Both the position numbers and the translations under genes were made by a program. 36,076 nucleotides of DNA from a virus (taxonomy: Duplodnaviria > Caudoviricetes): positions 1 through 36,076 of IMG/VR virus record IMGVR_UViG_3300025654_000023. One strand, written 5' to 3'. Below are positions 1,095 to 33,962 of this stretch, piece by piece. The notes under the pieces are model-generated. The model worked only from the letters and a program-made list of their open reading frames with translations, was not told the DNA's origin and made no database searches. Position 1 is the stretch's first letter. Every line of letters begins with the position of its first letter.

Positions 1095-1877
1095 ATGGCC
1101 ACAATGCAGCAACAATTGGAGTTAGAATATCTGATGTTACAGTCAGGTATCGATAGATATAATAAACAGCTTGATGATCTAGTAGGTAAGAGTTTAAGTT
1201 CTAAAACTTTACACGGGAGAACAATCATATCAGGAGTATGTGAACCTTTAGCTGACGGCATTAAGAAATTAGTAAAAGATAAAACAAGTAACAGAGATAT
1301 TACGTACAAACTACTTCAGGGTATTAAACCTGAACAAGCAGCATACCTTACACTTATCTCAGTCATTGATAAGGTAGCCCAGAACGTACCACTATTAAAC
1401 GTAGCCCGTTTAGTTGGGGTCAACATTGAGACACAGAAGCGTCTTGATCAATGGCTTACTATGGACAAAGAGACAGCAACTAACTTAATCAACATGGCTA
1501 ACAAGAAATCAGACAAAGGTTTTGATCACAAGCGGCATGGTCTTAACCATAAGATGAAGGTTGATAACATCGACATACCTACATGGTCGGACACAGATAG
1601 AATACACGTAGGCTTACGCTTGATTGATATAGTTATACAGCACACAGGCATCGTAAGGATACGTAAGGAGTATCACAGACGCAGAGCAGTGGCTTATCTA
1701 CAAGCAACAGAGGACACACTAGATTGGATAAAGGCTTTCAATGATACAAACCAAAGTAACCTACCTCGTTACAGCCCTTGTATTATCCAGCCTAAAGATT
1801 GGACAGAGTTCTTCGGTGGTGGTTACTACAGTGACCACATAAATAAAAAACCTTTCTTGCGAGTACATGGATTATGA
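1095..1877 (+). CDS. T7-type RNA polymerase, N-terminal part (260 aa)
   Basis: AGAGGG RBS before ATG 1095. Contains QQQLELE at the N-terminus, W...DRIHVGLRLID, and PCIIQPKDW...GGGYY, matching the T7 RNAP N-terminal region. Confidence 0.9.
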   Translation: MATMQQQLELEYLMLQSGIDRYNKQLDDLVGKSLSSKTLHGRTIISGVCEPLADGIKKLVKDKTSNRDITYKLLQGIKPEQAAYLTLISVIDKVAQNVPLLNVARLVGVNIETQKRLDQWLTMDKETATNLINMANKKSDKGFDHKRHGLNHKMKVDNIDIPTWSDTDRIHVGLRLIDIVIQHTGIVRIRKEYHRRRAVAYLQATEDTLDWIKAFNDTNQSNLPRYSPCIIQPKDWTEFFGGGYYSDHINKKPFLRVHGL

Positions 1878-3532
1878 AGAAGCACGTTGAGGAATACATA
1901 GAAAAGTTTAACCAACGAGATGTTAGCGTTGAATACAAATGTGTGAACGCCTTACAACGTACACCTTGGAGAGTTAATAGTTTTGTTTGTGATGTCTTAC
2001 GTACAGCATGGAATAGCGGACAACAGTGGCAAGGTCTACCACCAAGAGACAATGCACCAGTACCACCTTATCCGTTTGCAGTTGATCCTAAGTTTCTAAG
2101 AGAAGACCAGAAGGCAGAGTTCAAAGAGTTTAAGAGTAAGCGGAACAAAATATACACGGAGAATGCACGTAACCTATCAAGACGTATACAGGTTGAGCGT
2201 ACAATCCAACTAGCAGAAGAGTATTTAGCCCATGATGATTTTTGGTTTGTATGGCAGTTAGACTTTAGAGGCCGTAAGTACCCAGTTGAATCTTTTTTAT
2301 CACCACAAAATGCTGACTACAGCAAAGCATTATTAGAATTCAGCCAGTCAGTTACTATGGACAGTGCAGCTAGTGCTAAATGGTTAGCAATTCACGGCGC
2401 TAACGTCTTCGGTGTTGATAAAGTAAGCCTAGAAGACCGAGAAATGTGGGCTTACATGAATACTGAGAACGCTATCAGTGTATATAATGATCCATTAGGC
2501 AGTAAATGGTGGCAAGAAGCTGACAAACCATGGCAAGCATTAGCATGGTGTAAAGAATGGGCAGAGTACAACATCGCCAGAGCTGCTGGAGAGCCGTATG
2601 AGACACGCTTACCATGTGCTAGTGATGGTTCATGTAATGGCTTACAACATCTCTCAGCGATGCTCAGGGACTATGAGGGCGGTAGAGCTGTCAACCTTAC
2701 ACCTAGCAAAGAACCACAGGATATATATTCTGATGTTGCAACTAAAGCTACAGCCTTGTTAGAAAAAGAGGGGACGTTGATGGCTAGGCAGCTACTTGAA
2801 ATAGGTATATGCCGTAAGATATGTAAGCGACCAGTAATGATTGTCCCTTATAGTGGCACACGTCACTCATGTAGGGACTATATCATGGAGGCTTTAGAAG
2901 AAAAATGTAAAGGACGTAACCCTTGGGGTGACAACTTCTTTCAACCGTCTCTTTATTTATCAGGTTTTGTTTGGCAAGCAATCAGTGAAGTAATTGTCTC
3001 AGCTTTTGATGCAATGAAATACATTAAAGATATTGCAAAGCTATACGTAGAGAATGGTTTATCCTTTAGTTGGGAAACACCTACAAACTTATTAGTAAGG
3101 CAGCACTACCCTAACAGTACGTCTAAGCGTGTGAAGTCACACCTTAACGGATCGTTGGTGTCACTGCGATACAGAGAGACTGATGATACTTCTATCGACA
3201 AGCGTAAGATGTTATCAGGAGCAAGCCCAAACTTTGTACACTCTCTTGATGCAGCAGCGTTGACTATAACTGTAAGCAAATGTTTAGACGCAGGTATAAC
3301 TGACTTTGCTATGGTGCATGACAGCTATGGGACACACAGTCCAAACATGCCACTACTAAACGATGAGCTACGTAAAGCCTTTGTTGAGATGTACGAGGAG
3401 CATGACGTGCTTCTTAATCTCTACACAAGCGCAGTAGCTACATTACCGAAAGAGGTATTAGTACCACCTCCACCAGTCAAAGGTACTCTTGATTTAAAGG
3501 AGGTGCTACAAAGTGATTACTTTTTCGCCTAA
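1874..3532 (+). CDS. T7-type RNA polymerase, catalytic C-terminal part (552 aa)
   Basis: Motifs DFRGRKYP, DGSCNGLQH (motif A), RKICKRPVMIVPYS (motif B), NFVHSLDA (motif C) and C-terminal YFFA. Confidence 0.95.
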   Translation: MKKHVEEYIEKFNQRDVSVEYKCVNALQRTPWRVNSFVCDVLRTAWNSGQQWQGLPPRDNAPVPPYPFAVDPKFLREDQKAEFKEFKSKRNKIYTENARNLSRRIQVERTIQLAEEYLAHDDFWFVWQLDFRGRKYPVESFLSPQNADYSKALLEFSQSVTMDSAASAKWLAIHGANVFGVDKVSLEDREMWAYMNTENAISVYNDPLGSKWWQEADKPWQALAWCKEWAEYNIARAAGEPYETRLPCASDGSCNGLQHLSAMLRDYEGGRAVNLTPSKEPQDIYSDVATKATALLEKEGTLMARQLLEIGICRKICKRPVMIVPYSGTRHSCRDYIMEALEEKCKGRNPWGDNFFQPSLYLSGFVWQAISEVIVSAFDAMKYIKDIAKLYVENGLSFSWETPTNLLVRQHYPNSTSKRVKSHLNGSLVSLRYRETDDTSIDKRKMLSGASPNFVHSLDAAALTITVSKCLDAGITDFAMVHDSYGTHSPNMPLLNDELRKAFVEMYEEHDVLLNLYTSAVATLPKEVLVPPPPVKGTLDLKEVLQSDYFFA

Positions 3533-3552
3533 GTTCTAAAAGTACCGTTAAG
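3528..3552 (+). promoter_or_regulatory. Putative phage RNAP promoter (replication module)
   Basis: CCTAAGTTCTAAAAGTACCGTTAAG matches 12036-12060 at 22/25 positions and lies at the RNAP stop, upstream of SSB. Confidence 0.65.
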
Positions 3553-3596
3553 CCCAACACCCCCGTTCAACATTAACTATATAGGAAAGAGATAAC

Positions 3597-6335: not shown

Positions 6336-8048
6336 ATGTTAATTTTTGATTTAGAAACAGATGGCTTATTAGATGATGTAACTAAGGTTCATTGTATGGT
6401 TACACATGATACAGAGACAGGCGAGGTCAAGACGTATGACCCTGATCATATAGAAGATGGGATAGAAGCATTGCGTGATGCACAACAGATAGGTGGCCAC
6501 AACGTAATGTCATATGACCTACCAGTGTTAGAGAAATTATATTTCTTTGGTTACTATGGACAAGTGTTCGATACGTTAGTAGCCTCACGATTGATCTGGC
6601 CTAACATGAAAGAGAAAGACATGCTCAAGCGTACCGTTGACAATAAGTTAATTGGGTCGCACTCGTTAAAGGCATGGGGACAACGCTTAAAGTTTCATAA
6701 GGGTGACTACGGAGAGCAGGACGAAGCATGGGATGCCTACACACAACAGATGCTAGATTATTGTGTGCAAGATGTAGCTCTTAACGTCAAGTTGTACGAG
6801 TTGATCTTATCGAAGAAGTACCCTGAAGAACCTATGCGTCTTGAACACGAGATGAACCGCTTACTAAACAGACAACAACGTGCAGGTTTTCCTTTTGATG
6901 TACCAAAAGCACAGAAGCTCTACACTCTCTTATCAACACGTAAGTTAGAAATAGAAACAAAGCTTGTTGAAACTCTTGAGCCTACTATCATTGTGCTCAA
7001 GACCAAAACAAAGACTATACCTTTTAACCCTGCATCACGACAACAGATTGCAGACAGGTTACAGAAGTTAGGTTGGAAGCCTGAAGAGTTCACTCCATCT
7101 GGAGAACCAAAAGTTGACGAAAAAATCTTGGCAGGAATTGACTTGCCTGAAGCTGCATTATTGACTGAGTTCTTAATGCTAAACAAACGACTGGGGCAAT
7201 TAGGAAATGGAAAACAAGCATGGCTTAAACTGGAAAAAGCTGGACGCATTCACGGGCGGGTTAATCACATGGGCGCTGTTACTTCCCGCTGTACTCATAG
7301 TGATCCTAATGTTGCTCAAGTACCATCCGCAGGAGCTGCCTTTGGTAAGGAGTGTAGAGAGTTATTCCATGCACCAAGCGGCTACTCATTACTCGGAGCA
7401 GATGCAAGCGGCTTAGAACTACGCTGCCTAGCTCACTACATGAATCGCTTTGACGGTGGTAAGTACGGTAAAGAAATATTAGAAGGTGATATACACACAG
7501 CTAATCAAGAAGCGGCAGGACTTGCTACTCGCCCCCAAGCCAAGACATTTATCTATGGCTTTTTATACGGAGCAGGGAATGAGAAGATAGGTCAGATCAT
7601 TGGTAAAGGTGCGAAGGAAGGAGGTCAGATTAAGAAACGCTTTCTGGCTAAGACTCCAGCGTTAAAGAAACTAACAGAAGCCCTTAACAATAAACTAGAC
7701 AACCAGCGTGGTGAGAAATTCATTAACGGTTTAGATGGTAGGTTGATTCCTATCCGTCACCCACACGCAGCATTGAACACTCTTCTCCAATCAGCAGGAG
7801 CGATCATCTGTAAGAAGTGGTACGCAACTGTAGAAAATATGATAAGAGCTAAAGGCTACACTAACGAAGAAGTTACTATAGTGGCGTTTGTTCATGATGA
7901 GGTTCAGATACTTGTTAAGAAGGGGCTAGAGGATAAAATAGGTGAAATCACTAAAGCAGCCATTAAAGAAACAGAGCGAGCATTCAATTTTAAATGTCCT
8001 CTCGACTCAGAATTCCAAGTCGGAAGTAGTTGGGCAGAAACTCACTAG
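6336..8048 (+). CDS. Family A DNA polymerase with 3'-5' exonuclease (T7 gp5-like)
   Basis: FDLETDG exonuclease I motif, DASGLELR (motif A), RPQAKTFIYGFLYG (motif B), VHDE (motif C). Confidence 0.96.
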   Translation: MLIFDLETDGLLDDVTKVHCMVTHDTETGEVKTYDPDHIEDGIEALRDAQQIGGHNVMSYDLPVLEKLYFFGYYGQVFDTLVASRLIWPNMKEKDMLKRTVDNKLIGSHSLKAWGQRLKFHKGDYGEQDEAWDAYTQQMLDYCVQDVALNVKLYELILSKKYPEEPMRLEHEMNRLLNRQQRAGFPFDVPKAQKLYTLLSTRKLEIETKLVETLEPTIIVLKTKTKTIPFNPASRQQIADRLQKLGWKPEEFTPSGEPKVDEKILAGIDLPEAALLTEFLMLNKRLGQLGNGKQAWLKLEKAGRIHGRVNHMGAVTSRCTHSDPNVAQVPSAGAAFGKECRELFHAPSGYSLLGADASGLELRCLAHYMNRFDGGKYGKEILEGDIHTANQEAAGLATRPQAKTFIYGFLYGAGNEKIGQIIGKGAKEGGQIKKRFLAKTPALKKLTEALNNKLDNQRGEKFINGLDGRLIPIRHPHAALNTLLQSAGAIICKKWYATVENMIRAKGYTNEEVTIVAFVHDEVQILVKKGLEDKIGEITKAAIKETERAFNFKCPLDSEFQVGSSWAETH

Positions 8049-8058
8049 CAAAACACGT

Positions 8059-8328
8059 ATGGGAGATATAGCAGAACACTACGCAATCACTTGGTTATGG
8101 GACGAAGGTTTTGAAGTCTTTAGTAACAGCGGTGGCTCAGGTGCTATTGATATTGTAGCTATTAAAGATGGTGAAGTTTATCTCTTCGATGTCAAGACAC
8201 TCACGTTTCATAGAGGGATTTATATGATCAAGACAGCTCGGACAAAACAACAAATAGAAATGGGTGTTCAGCTACTTAGCTTCAATCCTAAAACACGCAA
8301 GCTGCGCTTAGTAAAACATAGGAAATAA
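8059..8328 (+). CDS. PD-(D/E)xK nuclease, Hjc-resolvase-like (start uncertain)
   Basis: GDIAE...L.DEGFEVF...IDIVAIKDGEVYLFDVK pattern; the real start may be further upstream in the same frame. Confidence 0.7.
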   Translation: MGDIAEHYAITWLWDEGFEVFSNSGGSGAIDIVAIKDGEVYLFDVKTLTFHRGIYMIKTARTKQQIEMGVQLLSFNPKTRKLRLVKHRK

Positions 8329-8330
8329 TT

Positions 8331-8519
8331 ATGGAAACAAGTACACTCAATTTAATCTTAGGTTTTGGTTTTGGTGCCGTCTCTTTTGCTTTCGCTTTTA
8401 AATGGATTGTTGAGTCTATCATCCACTGGAAGATGACTAACAAAGTAAGCACGATGATTACTATGGACGCACAAGAGTTTGAAAAATTTATGGAAGGACA
8501 AGACGATGAAGAAGTCTAG
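8331..8519 (+). CDS. Small predicted membrane protein
   Basis: AGGA RBS; one N-terminal hydrophobic segment and an acidic tail. Confidence 0.65.
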   Translation: METSTLNLILGFGFGAVSFAFAFKWIVESIIHWKMTNKVSTMITMDAQEFEKFMEGQDDEEV

Positions 8520-9231
8520 AACACTATTAGTTGACGGTGACATTGTAGCCTACAAAGCTGCAACCATTGCTGAGACTCCTATCAATTGGGGTGATGGTAT
8601 ATGGACACTACACGCCCATGAGAAAGATGTCGCAGGGTCGATGGAAGAGTTCATGAGTAAGATCATAGCACAGTCAGGGTGTGATAAAGTTATCACCTGT
8701 CTTTCAGGAGACAACCTGTACCGCAAAGATGTAGCTCCGTATTACAAGGCTAACCGAAAGCTTACCCGTAAGCCGATGCTGCTCAAGTACGCTAAAGATT
8801 ATTTAGCAATAAATTATAACGGCATGGTTGAGGACAAGTTAGAGGCTGATGACTTACTAGGAATCCTCGGTAGTAGAAGTTTTGATACTGTTATCTGGTC
8901 ACTTGATAAAGACTTACTTACTATTCCTGCATACCACTTGATTGATGGTAAGGTACAGGACGTAGATTTAGAAGAAGCTGATTATAATTTTCTTTATCAA
9001 ACATTAGTAGGCGACTCTACGGATAACTACAAAGGTTGTCCAACAGTAGGCGCTAAGAAAGCAGAGCAACTGCTCAGTGATAAAGGGGCAACATGGAAAA
9101 CCGTTGTCGATGCTTTTGCATCTAAAGGTTTAGGTGAAGAGGTAGCAATAGAGAATGCAAGACTAGCACGTATACTACGTGATGGTGAATATAACTTTGA
9201 AACAAAGGAAGTAAAATTATGGGCGGCATAA
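8506..9231 (+). CDS. 5'-3' exonuclease (T7 gp6-like)
   Basis: LLVDGD, YKANRK, LEADD, SLDKDL and GDSTDNYKGCPTVG motifs; GGAAGGA RBS before ATG 8506. Confidence 0.93.
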   Translation: MKKSRTLLVDGDIVAYKAATIAETPINWGDGIWTLHAHEKDVAGSMEEFMSKIIAQSGCDKVITCLSGDNLYRKDVAPYYKANRKLTRKPMLLKYAKDYLAINYNGMVEDKLEADDLLGILGSRSFDTVIWSLDKDLLTIPAYHLIDGKVQDVDLEEADYNFLYQTLVGDSTDNYKGCPTVGAKKAEQLLSDKGATWKTVVDAFASKGLGEEVAIENARLARILRDGEYNFETKEVKLWAA

Positions 9232-9557
9232 ACGATGCACCAGTAGACGAGTGGGACTTGGCATGTCAAGTGGGATACAAAAGTGTACACGCTGACCCAG
9301 TAAACAAACCCAGTGTACACGCTGACCCAGTAAACAGACCAGCACATTACAATGCAGGAGAGATAGAAACCATTGACTACATTGTTGATGTGTTAGGTAA
9401 GTATGAAGCTATCTCATACTGCCATGGTAATTTAATTAAGTACACTGGCTCTCGACTATGGACAAAGGGGAACCCTATCCAAGATGCAGAGAAAGCTCAG
9501 TGGTACTTAAACAAAATGATTGAACTAATGAAAGAAACTAAAGGAGTTAACTGGTGA
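9219..9557 (+). CDS. DUF3310 / T7 gp1.7-like putative nucleotide kinase
   Basis: DPVNRPAHYN.GEIETIDYI...GNLIKY...D.EKAQWYL signature. Confidence 0.85.
   Translation: MGGINDAPVDEWDLACQVGYKSVHADPVNKPSVHADPVNRPAHYNAGEIETIDYIVDVLGKYEAISYCHGNLIKYTGSRLWTKGNPIQDAEKAQWYLNKMIELMKETKGVNW
9282..9340 (+). repeat. 30-bp in-frame tandem duplication
   Basis: AGTGTACACGCTGACCCAGTAAACA(A/G)ACC occurs twice and encodes SVHADPVN(K/R)P twice. Confidence 0.95.
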
Positions 9558-9910
9558 ACCAAGTATCTTACGAATATCTACAAGGCATGTTTGAAGGTTT
9601 TGATTACTTTCAAGCAAAGTGTAATGACACAGCAATCTTCCCTGAAGACTTAGCCATTGAGTATCTTACTCTTGGTCTAGTATCTGAAGCTGGTGAAGTA
9701 GCTGATAAAATTAAGAAAAAAATTAGGGACGGTGAGCGTCCAAACCATAAGCAAGAAGTTAGTGATGAGCTAGGTGATGTCTTCTGGTACTTAGCAATGC
9801 TTGTTGATCGCATGGGTTTAAATCTAAGTGACGTAGCATTCGAGAACATGAACAAAACAATGAAGCGTAAGCTTGCTAATAAACTTAAAGGCTCAGGTGA
9901 TAACCGATGA
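9554..9910 (+). CDS. mazG: MazG-like nucleotide pyrophosphohydrolase
   Basis: LGLVSEAGEVADKIKKKIRD...DELGDVFWY...GSGDNR signature. Confidence 0.88.
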   Translation: MNQVSYEYLQGMFEGFDYFQAKCNDTAIFPEDLAIEYLTLGLVSEAGEVADKIKKKIRDGERPNHKQEVSDELGDVFWYLAMLVDRMGLNLSDVAFENMNKTMKRKLANKLKGSGDNR

Positions 9911-10044
9911 CTAACGAAGTAAAAGAAGACAAGTGTAGAGCTTGTTATGGCACAGGATTATATGGTTATGAACCCCAAGGTGATGGTTTGTATAAGGCTG
10001 CAAAGCCATGTCCAGTTTGCATGGGAGTAGGCACGAATGGATAG
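9907..10044 (+). CDS. Small DnaJ-type zinc-finger protein, 45 aa (not in ORF track)
   Basis: MTNEVKEDKCRACYGTG...CPVCMGVGTNG has two CxxCxGxG motifs; ATGA overlap with the mazG stop. Confidence 0.8.
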   Translation: MTNEVKEDKCRACYGTGLYGYEPQGDGLYKAAKPCPVCMGVGTNG

Positions 10045-11944
10045 TTATCAGCAGTACATACACAAGTCACGTTACGCACGTTGGAGAGAAGACGACAACA
10101 GACGAGAGACGTGGGCAGAAACAGTCCAGAGATATATTGATTTCTGGAAGGGACGCAAACAGCTAGATGAAGCAACAGGTAAGAAACTTTATGATGCTAT
10201 CTACAACCTAGAAGTAATGCCCTCTATGCGCTGCTTAATGACAGCAGGTGTTGCACTTGATCGTGACAACATGGCTGGCTTTAACTGCTCATACATAGCA
10301 GTAGATCATATCAGAGTGTTCGATGAAATATTATACGTATTAATGTGTGGCACTGGTGTAGGCTTTTCAGTCGAACGTCAGTCTGTAAATAAACTACCAG
10401 AAGTAGCAGAGGAATTTAATGAAACAGATACTACGATCCATGTTAGCGACAGTAAAATTGGTTGGGCTAAAGCTTTCCGTGAGCTGGTTAGTCTTTTGTA
10501 TTCGGGTCAAGTTCCTAGTTGGGATATTTCTAAACTACGTGGCAAAGGCGAAAGACTCAAGACATTCGGGGGTCGTTCTAGTGGCGCTGATCCTCTTGTT
10601 GCTCTTTTTGATTTTACAGTTAGCACTTTCAAAGGTGCTGCTGGTCGAAAGCTAACGAGTATCGAATGCCATGATATTGTATGTAAAATTGCAGAGATTG
10701 TTGTCGTGGGTGGCGTTCGTCGCTCTGCGCTTATTAGTCTGTCTAATCTTTCTGATGATCGGATGCGTCATGCTAAGTCGGGTAATTGGTGGGAAACTGA
10801 TACGCAACGTGCGCTCGCTAACAATAGTGCAGTGTATGATGAACGCCCTGACTTCGAGACGTTCCTAGAAGAGTGGACAGCTCTCTATAAATCTAAAGCA
10901 GGTGAGCGTGGTATCTTCTCCCGCAAGGCAGCAAAGAAACAATCAGCCCGTCACGGACGTAGAGATATTGAGCACGACTTTGGGACTAACCCATGTAGTG
11001 AGATCATCCTACGCTCTGCACAGGTTTGTAATTTGTCGGAAATCGTTATTCGTAGTACCGATACATACGGAGATTTAAAACGTAAGGTTGAGCTTGCTAC
11101 AATCCTTGGCACCCTACAGTCTTCTTTAACAGACTTCCGCTACGTGCGTAACATCTGGAAGAAGAACACACAGGAAGAGTGCTTGCTCGGTGTAAGTATG
11201 ACAGGCATCATGGATCATCCAGTAATGTCAGGACAACAAGATTCAGGTACGTGGTTTGATCACCCTAACCTGCCTATCTTACCTGAGATACTAGAGCGCC
11301 TTAAAGCTGTAGCTGTAGAGACCAACAAGAAGTGGGCAGAGAGTTTAGGTATTAATCAGTCTACGGCTATTACCGCCGTGAAACCAAGCGGTACTGTATC
11401 ACAGTTAGTGGATAGTGCGTCAGGTATACACGCTAGGTTCTCAGCTCAGTACATACGAACAGTACGTAGTGATGGCAAAGATCCTATCTCAGCCTTCCTC
11501 AAGGACGCTGGAGTGCCTTGGGAGAAAGATGTAATGAATGAGGATAACTATGTGTTCTCGTTCCCCATAAAGGCTCCTGCTGGCTCTACGAGCGTTGATG
11601 ACCTTAACGTACAGACACAGCTAGACTTGTGGGAAATCTATCAGAACCATTGGTGTGAGCATAAGCCTAGTGTGACTATTTATTACTCAGATGAGGAGTT
11701 CCTTGCAGCAGGTCAGTGGCTGTGGGATCGACTAGATAGTTGTTCAGGTATTAGCTTCTTGCCCCGCACAGATCATGTGTACAAGCAAGCACCTTACACA
11801 GCTATTACGGAACAAGCTTATGACGAAGCCTTAGCTAAAATGCCAGAGACTATTAACTGGAATGACTTGGGTAAGTTTGAAACAGAAGACACTACAACCG
11901 GTACGCAAGAACTCGCTTGTGTAGCAGGGCAGTGTGAAATATAG
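10037..11944 (+). CDS. nrdJ: Class II (adenosylcobalamin-dependent) ribonucleotide reductase
   Basis: FNCS, LMCGTGVGFS, GGVRRSALI, TNPCSEI, VKPSGTVSQL, WCEHKPS and C-terminal CVAGQCEI; no beta-subunit gene follows. The class call comes from family resemblance only. Confidence 0.85.
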   Translation: MDSYQQYIHKSRYARWREDDNRRETWAETVQRYIDFWKGRKQLDEATGKKLYDAIYNLEVMPSMRCLMTAGVALDRDNMAGFNCSYIAVDHIRVFDEILYVLMCGTGVGFSVERQSVNKLPEVAEEFNETDTTIHVSDSKIGWAKAFRELVSLLYSGQVPSWDISKLRGKGERLKTFGGRSSGADPLVALFDFTVSTFKGAAGRKLTSIECHDIVCKIAEIVVVGGVRRSALISLSNLSDDRMRHAKSGNWWETDTQRALANNSAVYDERPDFETFLEEWTALYKSKAGERGIFSRKAAKKQSARHGRRDIEHDFGTNPCSEIILRSAQVCNLSEIVIRSTDTYGDLKRKVELATILGTLQSSLTDFRYVRNIWKKNTQEECLLGVSMTGIMDHPVMSGQQDSGTWFDHPNLPILPEILERLKAVAVETNKKWAESLGINQSTAITAVKPSGTVSQLVDSASGIHARFSAQYIRTVRSDGKDPISAFLKDAGVPWEKDVMNEDNYVFSFPIKAPAGSTSVDDLNVQTQLDLWEIYQNHWCEHKPSVTIYYSDEEFLAAGQWLWDRLDSCSGISFLPRTDHVYKQAPYTAITEQAYDEALAKMPETINWNDLGKFETEDTTTGTQELACVAGQCEI

Positions 11945-12035: not shown

Positions 12036-12060
12036 CCTAGTTTCTAAACGTACCGTTAAG
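12036..12060 (+). promoter_or_regulatory. Putative phage RNAP promoter (structural module)
   Basis: CCTAGTTTCTAAACGTACCGTTAAG, 22/25 identical to 3528-3552, directly before the first late gene. Confidence 0.65.
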
Positions 12061-12070
12061 AGAAACAACT

Positions 12071-27486: not shown

Positions 27487-28287
27487 ATGGCACTTTCATA
27501 CACTGAATACGTAGCTGATGGATCAACTTCAATGTTTCCATCTAAGCTATACTTACGGCCTGAGCATCTGGTTGTTACCGTTGACACTGTAATTCAAACG
27601 ACCTCAGCCTATACAGTAGAACAAACTCAAGTAACTTTTAATTCCCCACCTCCTGATGGAGCTGTAGTCCGTATAGGGAGAAACACGAGCCAAGAGGGGC
27701 GTTTAACAGACTACCGTGACGGCTCATTATTAACTGCGGATGTACTAGATAATGATGCTTTCCAGTTATTCTATATGGCTCAAGAGGCTTTAGATGCCGC
27801 TATAGATATTATGCCGCTACGTGCTTCTTACGAAGAAAGGTTACTACTTCTTGAGAACGCAGTAGCCTCGCTTGGTGGCTCTACTGGTGGCGGTGTTAGC
27901 TCACCTAATAGAGTAACCTTTAATGTTCAAGAGGCTACTTCAGCGTTTAACACGTCTTTTGACTTAGTATCAACCACTCTAGTGTTTTTAAACGGTGTGT
28001 TATTAGTAAACGGAATCGATCTCACCTTTCAAGCAAATAGACAACTGAACCTAACTACCCCCGCAAATAACGGCGATGTTTTAGAAGTAGTTGGCTGGTC
28101 GACTGTGCCTACTGTTACTCCTGCTCCTGCTCCCGATCCTAATGAACCTGAAACTGTTCGTACTGATACCCCTCTTGTGGATTCGGAAGGTAAAATAATC
28201 TTCGCTAAAGACTATGAAGAACCCCTTACACGTGTCAACATGGACTACACAGTGGCCCAGATTAACACAAAACTAGGACCACTATAA
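27487..28287 (+). CDS. Short tail fibre / adaptor with T7 gp17-type N-terminal attachment domain
   Basis: Y.ADGST..F, VVRIGRNT, DYRDGSLLTADVLD and QLFYMAQEA; then a VFLNGVLL domain; only 266 aa. Confidence 0.85.
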   Translation: MALSYTEYVADGSTSMFPSKLYLRPEHLVVTVDTVIQTTSAYTVEQTQVTFNSPPPDGAVVRIGRNTSQEGRLTDYRDGSLLTADVLDNDAFQLFYMAQEALDAAIDIMPLRASYEERLLLLENAVASLGGSTGGGVSSPNRVTFNVQEATSAFNTSFDLVSTTLVFLNGVLLVNGIDLTFQANRQLNLTTPANNGDVLEVVGWSTVPTVTPAPAPDPNEPETVRTDTPLVDSEGKIIFAKDYEEPLTRVNMDYTVAQINTKLGPL

Positions 28288-30143
28288 TGAAAAAGATGAA
28301 CAATTTGGCAAGCCAAAGCCAAGCTACAAGCAATAACACAACTAAATTATATCACATCGTATTGAAAGAAGGTGTAGATAAAAACTTGTACTTTAACAAA
28401 GTCACTTCTGTTGTAAAACCCCTCAATGACCAACCTGAGACTTTCAAAGCTTTATGTACTAAAGAACAGGCAAAAACTTTATGGGGAGACCCTCAAGTAA
28501 AATGTGCAGTAGATACAGATAAAGTAACAGACAGTGTTTCTGAGCTAGTTACAAAACAAGTCGTTGTTAAGCGTCTATCAAAAGAACACGTTGGTGAACC
28601 ACCTGTAGTTGATGGAGGTTGGGATTATGCAGGTAATTGGGGCTTAATCAGACACTCTAGTCGTACAAACAACATAACCACAAACAATGTGAAGAGCACA
28701 GAGACGTTCTCGTCCAATTATGATGGCACAGGTGTAGATTTAATTCTATTAGGTCGCTCCCAACTAACTGCCGATGATACAGAATTTATGAAAGCTGACG
28801 GCTCTTCAAGACTCCAGCAGTTTCAGTGGAATAGTTTAGACGGGTTGAGCGATCTACCCGCTATAGATTATACTTTTGTTGAGAATAATATTCACACTCA
28901 TTCTGAGTTTGTTCTATATTGTGCCGCTGGTAATACTTATGGTTGGGCAACAGGGGCAAACGTCTATGTCTGGCCCACAGAAACAATGAATGCGGGTGGT
29001 ATAAATACTTGGGACTCCTTCGGACATATTCAAAAGTTCCACGAAACTAAGATAGCAGCGGGCAATACTCGCCCTACCGTACTTGTTTGTTCATTAGGTA
29101 TGAAAAACGATCTTGATCAGGAAGATGGTCTTATGCAAGGGCTAGTGCTTCGAGATAAGGTATACACAAATATAAGTCCTTCAGGTTCGGGTGATGCCCA
29201 TGTATCTAGTGTAAATAAAAACACAAACGGTTCCTTTCCTAGAATGGCCTCACACGTTATTGGTTATTATGCTAATGAGGACGAAAAACCTGAGCTTTTT
29301 GCTGCTATTGATAGTAAAGACCATGCTGCTGTCAAGGCTATTTTAGATGACCCCTCAGAAAACCCTTACCATGTTTTAGGTGCAGGAAAATGTCAAGCCA
29401 TGATGGACGCTGGTGTGCATTATGTAAAAGCAGCGGGCAATTCTTCAGAAAGTGTAGTGAATCTGGGGCATCCTGATTATAATAACTGCCATATAGGTAT
29501 GTGGACTGATACTAATGAATACTTTGCAGATAGACGTTATATAGCTTCAAACTCCAGACCAGATGGGCTACTGGGCTGTCCTGACTCAATCAATGTTGGG
29601 GCTTTGTCTTCTGATATGATGCACAACGAAGGCCAAGAAAAATTAGCAGGTTTTAGTGTTCGAGGTGTAGGTATTGATTGTGTGGCTGTGGGAGAAGATC
29701 TAATGCTTACTTCTCACTCTCGTTCTGCGGTGTATGCAGATTCGCCATCATTAGACGGCGGCCCTTATCTTGTACTTACATCGGGAACTTCCTTCGCTTC
29801 TCCTCAGATAGCTGGAATGGCTTGTTTAGTTTTAGAAAAATACCCAACAACTACACCTAAACAAATGAAGAGGTATTTTAGGTATATCGCTGTTGGTACT
29901 GATAAACTTTTAGATGCTTATCCAACCGACTTAGCCGAGTCTACTAAGTATGGAGATGCGCCTTATTATTCTTCAGCAGGTTTACACGGCTACTCAGGCA
30001 ACATCGCTTATTTAGACCCCACTCTTGACTTTGATCCAACATCTTTGGAGGATACTTCTATTAACTACCCTACGGTGACTGTCACGGATACGTCCTTAAA
30101 TCACACAGTAGCACAAGTTAATACTAAATTAAGCGGTATATAA
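28287..30143 (+). CDS. Subtilisin-like (S8) protein 1, tail module
   Basis: DGTGVD, H...GNTYGWA, AAGNS, INVGAL, FSVRG and SGTSFASPQIAG motifs; N-terminal segment resembles an I9 propeptide. Confidence 0.85.
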   Translation: MKKMNNLASQSQATSNNTTKLYHIVLKEGVDKNLYFNKVTSVVKPLNDQPETFKALCTKEQAKTLWGDPQVKCAVDTDKVTDSVSELVTKQVVVKRLSKEHVGEPPVVDGGWDYAGNWGLIRHSSRTNNITTNNVKSTETFSSNYDGTGVDLILLGRSQLTADDTEFMKADGSSRLQQFQWNSLDGLSDLPAIDYTFVENNIHTHSEFVLYCAAGNTYGWATGANVYVWPTETMNAGGINTWDSFGHIQKFHETKIAAGNTRPTVLVCSLGMKNDLDQEDGLMQGLVLRDKVYTNISPSGSGDAHVSSVNKNTNGSFPRMASHVIGYYANEDEKPELFAAIDSKDHAAVKAILDDPSENPYHVLGAGKCQAMMDAGVHYVKAAGNSSESVVNLGHPDYNNCHIGMWTDTNEYFADRRYIASNSRPDGLLGCPDSINVGALSSDMMHNEGQEKLAGFSVRGVGIDCVAVGEDLMLTSHSRSAVYADSPSLDGGPYLVLTSGTSFASPQIAGMACLVLEKYPTTTPKQMKRYFRYIAVGTDKLLDAYPTDLAESTKYGDAPYYSSAGLHGYSGNIAYLDPTLDFDPTSLEDTSINYPTVTVTDTSLNHTVAQVNTKLSGI

Positions 30144-32225: not shown

Positions 32226-33962
32226 ATGAAAAAGTTTCATTTAATATTTAAGAAAGAAGTCGAAAAAGAAGCCTACATAATTAAAGTTTCTAATGTGCTC
32301 GATTTTTGCAAACACCAAAAGAAAATAATGGATGTTGAAGCCACAGAGGAGCAAGTGAAGCTTCTTAAAAAAGACCCAAATGTCCTAGATTTGTTACCTG
32401 AAGAATTTTGGCTAACCGAAGTGAATGAAGCCACAAAAGATGTTTATTACAACAGACCTTCATGGAACAACGAAAAATTTGAAACTGATTTCGGTAATTG
32501 GGGCTTAATTAGACATTCGAGTTTAACTGACGTGGGTACTAGCGATACACCAGTCACAGCAACGTATGAATATAATTACGATGGCTCAGGGGTTGATATT
32601 ATATTAAACATAGCCTCAGTCTTAAACCGCAATGATCCTGAATTTAAAACAGGTGGGGTTAGTAGGCTCCAACAGTTCCAATGGAATACTTTAGCTGATT
32701 TTGAAGATCTTCCTACTATAGATTATAGCAGGACAGGGCAGGGGGTGTCTAAGAATGTTGGCATAGACGACCACGCTGAATCCGTTTCGTATTGCGCTGT
32801 AAGTAACACTTATGGTTGGGCAACAGGGGCTACCGTATACATATACCCTAGAGATCAAATGGATGCGGCTGGAAAATCCTTAAGAAGTTATGGTTGGCAA
32901 GCTATGCAAAAATTCCATGAAACCAAGGGTAATAATCGACCAACCCTAGTCATAGATGCAATAGGCTACTCTGCCACGAATATTATTGGCCACTATGCTG
33001 AGAACATTTTTTATAGAGGTACAACTTATACATCTGTCGCTCCTGCTGGCGCTTCTGAACAAAAAGTTCCACTTATGGCGGAAGCTGGTAGTGGGAAAGA
33101 ATTTGGGATGCCACACTCGAACAGCTACACCTCAACTGGATTTGTATCTGACCCTGATGAACTCATTCCACAGATGACTGACGTAGAGAAAAGAGCGTTC
33201 TTCGAGGATGATGTCAATAATATTTATTATGGTCTTTATGGCGAAGGTATTGATAATATGGTAGCTGCGGGTGTACATCATGTAACATCAGCAGGTAATA
33301 ATTCAGATGCTTCCCACTTAAAAGGCCACCCTGATTATGCTAATAACTATAAAAGAGTTGCAGATGTAACAACTGATGGCGTTCATACAAGATACTTTTG
33401 GTATATGCTGCATGGCAGGGGTAATCCAACCTATGAGGGTGATACAATAGTGGTTGGTGCTTTGGCACAATCATCCAGTGCTGAAGGTTTTGATGGTAAA
33501 GAACACTTTGCACAGTTTTCTACCAGAGGTTCTAGAGTGGACGCTTGTGCTGCTGGAGATAACATTAGGCTTAATATGTATTCTAATGGAGAATATATTG
33601 CTAATGGCACATCTTTTGCAAGCCCTAACGTAGGAGGCATGGCAGCGCTTGTACTTGGAAAGTATCCAACAACTACTACTAAACAATTAAGACGGTATTT
33701 CAGGGAACAAGCTGTTGGTACAGACAAGCTACACGAAGGAAATGAAAATTTAGCTCCAAGTTCTAAATATGGTGATCCACTGTGGTTTGCTCAATCAGGT
33801 GGTTTTGGTTACTCAAATAACATTGCTTATTTAGATCCTGATTTAACCTTTGATCCTACAACGCTTCCTGACACAGCCATTGCGGATTATGTTCCAACTA
33901 CTTCGGATATTCACTTAAATTACACAGTAGATGAGATTAATACGAAATTAGGGGCAATTTAA
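32226..33962 (+). CDS. Subtilisin-like (S8) protein 2, paralog of 28287..30143
   Basis: Shares GNWGLIRHSS, SRLQQFQWN, NTYGWATGA, AGN, GTSFASP and KYPTTT with protein 1. Confidence 0.85.
   Translation: MKKFHLIFKKEVEKEAYIIKVSNVLDFCKHQKKIMDVEATEEQVKLLKKDPNVLDLLPEEFWLTEVNEATKDVYYNRPSWNNEKFETDFGNWGLIRHSSLTDVGTSDTPVTATYEYNYDGSGVDIILNIASVLNRNDPEFKTGGVSRLQQFQWNTLADFEDLPTIDYSRTGQGVSKNVGIDDHAESVSYCAVSNTYGWATGATVYIYPRDQMDAAGKSLRSYGWQAMQKFHETKGNNRPTLVIDAIGYSATNIIGHYAENIFYRGTTYTSVAPAGASEQKVPLMAEAGSGKEFGMPHSNSYTSTGFVSDPDELIPQMTDVEKRAFFEDDVNNIYYGLYGEGIDNMVAAGVHHVTSAGNNSDASHLKGHPDYANNYKRVADVTTDGVHTRYFWYMLHGRGNPTYEGDTIVVGALAQSSSAEGFDGKEHFAQFSTRGSRVDACAAGDNIRLNMYSNGEYIANGTSFASPNVGGMAALVLGKYPTTTTKQLRRYFREQAVGTDKLHEGNENLAPSSKYGDPLWFAQSGGFGYSNNIAYLDPDLTFDPTTLPDTAIADYVPTTSDIHLNYTVDEINTKLGAI

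Follow-up and report, generated by a model that had tools for sequence, protein, structure and literature searches.

A T7-type RNA polymerase encoded by two conserved genes in a clade of uncultured marine T7-like phages

RESULTS

The RNA polymerase locus consists of two overlapping genes

The window, which is the whole stretch of 36,076 nt that was analysed, is a T7-like phage record of ocean origin with a completeness of 90%, and its genes follow the T7-like order: RNA polymerase (RNAP), SSB, endonuclease, primase/helicase, DNA polymerase, portal, capsid, and tail. The RNAP is encoded by two genes (Table 1). The ATG of gene 1 is preceded by GAGGG 7 nt upstream, its product ends with PFLRVHGL, and the product of gene 2 begins with MKKH; the stop of the former and the start of the latter overlap as ATGA at 1874–1877. 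Gene 1 was assigned to PF14700 (RPOL_N, E value 3e-16) and gene 2 to PF00940 (E value 9e-102). Motifs A, B, and C and the C-terminal FFA of the gene 2 product could be aligned to T7 RNAP, so that the RPOL_N and RNA_pol domains, the catalytic motifs, the terminal FxA, and the gene order by which a T7-like RNAP is recognized were all found in the window. In the alignment the gene 1 product ends at T7 residues ~300–302, and by ungapped extrapolation the gene 2 product starts at ~297, which means that the two halves together, with a total of 812 aa, have ~5 extra residues at the seam. The search for another RNAP in this 90%-complete record found none, leaving one RNAP locus only.

Table 1. Features of the RNAP locus and promoter-like motifs in the window
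Feature	Position	Strand	Description
Gene 1 (ORF-N), N-terminal subunit of T7-type RNAP	1095–1877	+	260 aa; RPOL_N; corresponds to T7 ~30–302
Gene 2 (ORF-C), catalytic subunit	1874–3532	+	552 aa; thumb, palm, fingers, specificity loop, DxxGR, A, B, C, terminal FFA
Arm, PxYxPCIIxPKDW-GGGY-LR	1755–1874	+	Codons 221–260 of gene 1; conserved; predicted to need the catalytic subunit for folding
Junction with ATGA stop/start overlap	1856–1877	+	Site of the Shine–Dalgarno sequence embedded in the clade; degenerate here (TTG CGA)
Promoter-like motif, copy 1	3530–3553	+	Overlaps the gene 2 stop; upstream of the SSB gene
Promoter-like motif, copy 2	12036–12061	+	Ahead of the structural block; portal and capsid genes follow

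A preliminary description of this DNA had reported the polymerase as two ORFs with the ATGA overlap, intact catalytic motifs, and 812 aa in total, and the recomputed coordinates, domains, and motif alignments agreed with it; the further ATGA overlaps that it listed at 9907 and 34185 were both present. The ORF that begins at the first of these (9907–10040) encodes a short, zinc-finger-like peptide with two CxxC motifs. Two other regions, 28287–30143 and 32226–33962, encode paralogous late proteins of 618 and 578 aa, with a match to phrog_3677 'protease' near both C-termini.

The split is present in independent samples and in distant relatives

An assembly error had been considered a real possibility in the preliminary description, and the weak ribosome-binding site of gene 2 in the window would be in line with a one-base error or with a decaying pseudogene. 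However, the junction was crossed without an indel in contigs from eight of eight runs, two of which were possibly the source of the window DNA, and the break was kept in all 15 relatives with a match from residue 1 (52–100% identity). An extra base restoring a single ORF, which had been named earlier as the observation that would overturn the split, was found neither in these contigs nor in these relatives.

Further relatives came from five scans, the first one and four that were queried with alignments or a protein, which contributed the best 80 of 535, the best 80 of 397, 22 of 22, the best 80 of 186, and 18 of 18 matches. The resulting 277 entries, which count the window, one GenBank locus, and duplicates, contain 211 distinct nucleotide pairs and 104 distinct junction strings. 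Among these listed matches, duplicates included, 271 were split at the same place, one was fused, and five were uninformative; the single polypeptide that marks a T7-like RNAP is missing from the 271. The sole fused entry in this list, L018, is distant (25%/37% identity). Fused members may be under-represented in this list, since the queries stemmed from split proteins and the three long lists were used down to their 80th match. In the protein collection, 110 of 117 gene 1 matches were 240–292 aa long, and none of the top 120 gene 2 matches exceeded 556 aa, even though lengths up to 966 aa were allowed. Longer proteins containing gene 1 were also sought there and none were found, which is weak evidence because a profile search later turned up fused relatives. 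A fused sequence of 814 aa and 45% identity, L291, was found in the genome collection.

Both polymerase genes are under purifying selection, with dN/dS values of 0.03–0.16 for gene 1 (12 of 12 pairs) and 0.04–0.14 for gene 2 (11 of 12 pairs, the remaining one being saturated). The DxxGR motif and motifs A, B, and C were intact in 87, 85, 85, and 87 of 87 sequences, respectively, and the arm contains many invariant columns. The independent samples and the 104 distinct junctions, found at identities down to 36%, rule out the suspected assembly error, and together with the selection on both genes they reduce the probability of an error or a pseudogene to a negligible level. The two-piece gene arrangement is real and conserved.

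Varied junction layouts argue against programmed frameshifting

The 104 distinct junctions had a −4 layout in 82 cases, −1 in 12, +3 (an in-frame stop and then 3 nt) in four, and +8 in two, with +7, +14, +19, and an inserted gene seen once each. The two genes were adjacent and coupled in 103 of the 104 junction types, and gene 2 started with ATG in 101 and with TTG in three. The inserted gene, which lies between the polymerase halves of L188 at 1729–2421 and is coupled at both ends, encodes a 230-aa ThyX (PF02511); the start of gene 2 in this locus is more likely the ATG at 2418 behind AAGGAG (gap 690) than an upstream ATG (gap 642). An integrase fragment is located upstream of this ThyX gene. 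The +19 layout of L010 (585–631) results from a ~23-nt duplication, either real or an assembly artefact, by which the last part of gene 1 occurs again ahead of the second start.

A programmed −1 frameshift had been proposed earlier as an alternative, and in the subclade of the window it would occur at the A6 run (~1845–1851) and yield one chain. The location of gene 2 in the −1 frame in 97 of 104 junctions could suggest such a mechanism, as could the AAAAAAC sequence of the window, which lies where the −1 frame opens and is not accompanied by a Shine–Dalgarno sequence; the opening of this frame only at the A6 run, 30 nt upstream of gene 2, agrees with the preliminary description. On the other hand, a −4 or −1 stop/start overlap alone produces the −1 frame, and the conserved slippery heptamer and fixed overlap geometry that mark frameshifting were not seen, as the heptamer was present in just three of 94 overlap junctions and the geometry took eight forms. 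Four junctions have the −1 frame open for only 4 nt, and a slip at the A run would swap out the conserved PFLRVH end of gene 1. Layouts that have an in-frame stop, a spacer, or a whole gene between the halves leave no room for frameshifting as a general mechanism, and for the subclade of the window it is very improbable. The junction variety and the conserved break support instead a true two-gene enzyme, which had been the other alternative.

A Shine–Dalgarno site is embedded in gene 1 of most relatives

In counts made across relatives, which are linked by kinship and hence not independent, the arginine at the seam was encoded by AGG in 85 of 93 sequences compared to 381 of 1414 (27%) elsewhere in gene 1, the codon before it ended in G in 82 of 94 compared to 720 of 5552 elsewhere, and the pairing with the anti-Shine–Dalgarno sequence was stronger than in synonymous shuffles in 88 of 94. 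In most relatives these two codons (xxG-AGG) form a GAGG ~7–9 nt before the second start, inside the last codons of gene 1. The window belongs to the minority type with CGA at the seam arginine, and its pairing is the same as expected from synonymous shuffles (−2.5 kcal/mol in both cases), which bears out the earlier remark that the ribosome-binding site of its second ORF is weak. We propose that the translation of gene 2 would be started by re-initiation at the ATGA overlap, and that in most relatives the Shine–Dalgarno sequence inside gene 1 could help this process and lead to roughly matched amounts of the two subunits. In the window, where a Shine–Dalgarno sequence was not detectable, re-initiation would depend on the overlap alone.

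The linker has been cut in several lineages

The clade of the window and two fused singletons, P0242 and P0248, formed a group with a support of 100, marked by a star, in quick LG+G4 trees built from 38 and 24 of 92 rows without L291; P0242 is the sister, and P0248 fell either next to the clade or inside it. The monophyly of the split-only members had a support of 65–75. A single fission at the base of the clade is not rejected by these trees and is the probable origin of the split. All members of the clade are uncultured, no prophage of this clade was found in the genome collection, and the host leads, one Porticoccaceae MAG protein and low-scoring Rhodobacteraceae predictions, are weak.

Two-part RNAP genes were also present in the cultured SAR11 phages Gjalp, Eyrgjafa, HTVC041P, and HTVC025P, and in the uncultured S30-C28 and KM23-C739. 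Joining these group III phages to the clade was rejected in one moderate test (AU p = 0.0198; 24 rows, quick LG+G4 tree). In HTVC025P the RNAP halves are separated by two small hypothetical genes (L286, 1313–1713). The 'single-chain' RNAP gene of HTVC011P (KC465900; L285, 1775–1815) retains AAGGA and, in another frame, the MHYNL start of a second subunit, has one base less than the split HTVC041P, and nests among split phages (AU p = 0.0006); its one-chain state may be a recent re-fusion or a sequencing error.

A third break point, at T7 ~280 after a PPxxW motif, was found in four of 31 genome loci (L296, L300, L308, and L316). These loci (~6400–11600) are prophage-like RNAPs in unrelated bacteria that were left out of the trees, and in L308 and L316 two or more genes lie between the halves. 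An RNAP-like locus of Asaia (L312, 161–2760) consists of three or four ORFs with other break positions and is possibly a decaying prophage. The location of three break points in one linker (T7 297–302, ~292, and ~280) indicates that the linker is a recurrent fission zone.

The natural break coincides with an engineered seam and differs from known natural ones

T7 RNAP (gp1) has the domains, motifs, and gene order in common with the enzyme of the window, and differs from it in being one 883-aa chain, in contrast to two natural genes that are under selection and have their own translation signals. T7 RNAP cut at residue 301 or 302 is active, with the seam given in Supplementary Fig. S3 of the study (Segall-Shapiro 2014, PMC4299498). 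The natural break at T7 297–302 coincides with this engineered seam, as the preliminary description had suggested.

The preliminary description had also pointed to N4 RNAPII (gp15 of 269 aa and gp16 of 404 aa; Schitoviridae), which is indeed a natural two-gene heterodimer of the T7-like family; its break is placed elsewhere, after the thumb (PMC4496689). The first subunit of N4 RNAPII contains the thumb and DX2GR, whereas here DxxGR is in subunit 2, and N4 RNAPII has 673 aa in total and a shortened N-terminal domain, compared to 812 aa here. An N4-type virion RNAP was not found in the 90%-complete record of the window. The identity of the window enzyme with N4 RNAPII was rejected on all of these grounds: the place of the break, DxxGR in subunit 2, the length, and the virion RNAP not being found.

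The expectation that Autographiviridae RNAPs are normally one chain had to be corrected, because the RNAP genes of group III pelagiphages, HTVC011P excepted, have already been reported to be in two parts, with an interruption that is not recent (Chen 2019, PMC6811365); section 7 of that paper gives neither a break position nor a mechanism. The six group III phages listed above, which are of the HTVC019P type, resemble the window in having two genes, a cut in the same linker, a catalytic part of ~556 aa, and genes that can be inserted between the halves. However, they are a separate lineage with catalytic parts ~37–39% identical to that of the window, their second gene starts with MHYN, and their N-terminal part has 298–329 aa compared to 260 here. 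Their break precedes a hydrophobic-hydrophobic-Arg/Lys strand (T7 ~292), which in the window belongs to subunit 1. Equating the two splits was rejected by the AU test (p = 0.02) and by the different breakpoint.

The clade appears to be represented in the marine Autographiviridae group AG-7, which is defined by placement in a tree of seven core genes, comprises 102 genomes, is distributed worldwide, and has no cultured member (Du 2025, PMC12361551). Two split relatives that lie at opposite ends of the clade, L036 and L249, have their contigs assigned to AG-7 in the tables of this study (two of six ids queried). The words 'split' or 'two parts' do not occur in its main text, and 'split' does not occur in the text of Zhao 2018 (10.1101/410191). 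A published description of the split in this clade was not found in a literature search that mostly did not cover subscription papers.

Promoter-like motifs follow the polymerase genes

The promoter-like motif had two matches in the window, at 3530 and 12038, compared to 0.06 expected. A related motif was located at the same position after gene 2 across the clade, and a second copy was found in one of 70 loci, within short flanks. By eye, a partial promoter-like copy was noticed inside gene 1 (1190–1207), which is absent from the computed matches. A lysine at the position of T7 N748 was accompanied by a G at −11 of the promoter in 24 of 25 rows, compared to two of 15 rows otherwise, in a loop/promoter tally that uses a heuristic anchor, does not correct for kinship, and covers neither the window nor loci missed by the anchor or the loop pattern. 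Under the same anchoring the G of the window promoter is at −10.

A C-terminal arm of subunit 1 is predicted to join the two subunits

When subunit 1 was modelled alone, residues 1–220 folded confidently and residues 221–260 had pLDDT values of 40–59, while the stretch matching this arm in the one-chain relative P0242 reached 84–96, in a fold made from a different alignment. Compared with T7 structures (PDB 1CEZ and 1MSW), the model was more similar to the N-terminal domain in the elongation form (TM 0.77–0.80) than in the initiation form (TM 0.47), which fits the retention of subunit 1 during elongation. Charge complementarity of the new subunit ends was sought and was absent, both ends being net positive.

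The N-terminal region of T7 RNAP has roles in promoter binding and refolding, and residues 1–220 of subunit 1 may perform them in the same way, while the arm (T7 ~262–300) would dock on the catalytic body. If the arm clasps the catalytic body, a cut placed after it would leave a stable dimer, and the split is probably tolerated because the cut falls there. From the sequences and the models, we consider it very likely that the only T7-type RNAP of this phage consists of the products of two conserved genes; separate translation of the two, and their assembly into one enzyme via the predicted 40-residue arm, are both likely. The complex would transcribe from the two promoter-like motifs.

Alternatively, the subunits could be partly separate, with the N-terminal one serving as a loosely bound, releasable, or limiting initiation factor, and the catalytic one elongating or acting alone. 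The presence of other genes between the halves in L188, HTVC025P, L308, and L316, the predicted folding of residues 1–220 on their own, and the recurrence of splitting in at least three lineages within ~25 residues could be explained in this way. This explanation is unlikely in view of the nearly universal adjacency and coupling of the two genes, the high conservation of the arm, and the better fit of the lone model to the elongation form, and one enzyme joined by the arm is the reading that we prefer. Similarly doubtful is the idea that a free-standing N-terminal subunit brings an advantage, being sigma-like, exchangeable, or rate-limiting in initiation and open to regulation or swapping by the phage apart from the core, and that this is why the polymerase was cut repeatedly and independently within the 25 residues that follow its promoter-binding domain.

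DISCUSSION

A two-part RNAP had been in print as a remark on group III; found here were a break that falls exactly on the engineered seam, a ribosome-binding site embedded in gene 1 of most relatives, a gene inserted between the halves, and origins of the split that recurred. The data show that the phage polymerase known from textbooks as one chain is routinely two-piece in a group that appears to rank third in size among marine T7-like phages, and that evolution arrived at the seam which a blind bisection screen had found in T7. Such phages will be mis-annotated in surveys that take a single RNAP gene per genome for granted. The naturally evolved halves have interfaces of their own and promoters that differ, and they could be used as parts for split polymerases. 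The reason for the rise of heterodimeric T7-type enzymes was stated to be unclear in PMC4496689; with at least three lineages breaking in one short zone, the origin of such heterodimers becomes testable with natural pairs of split and fused enzymes.
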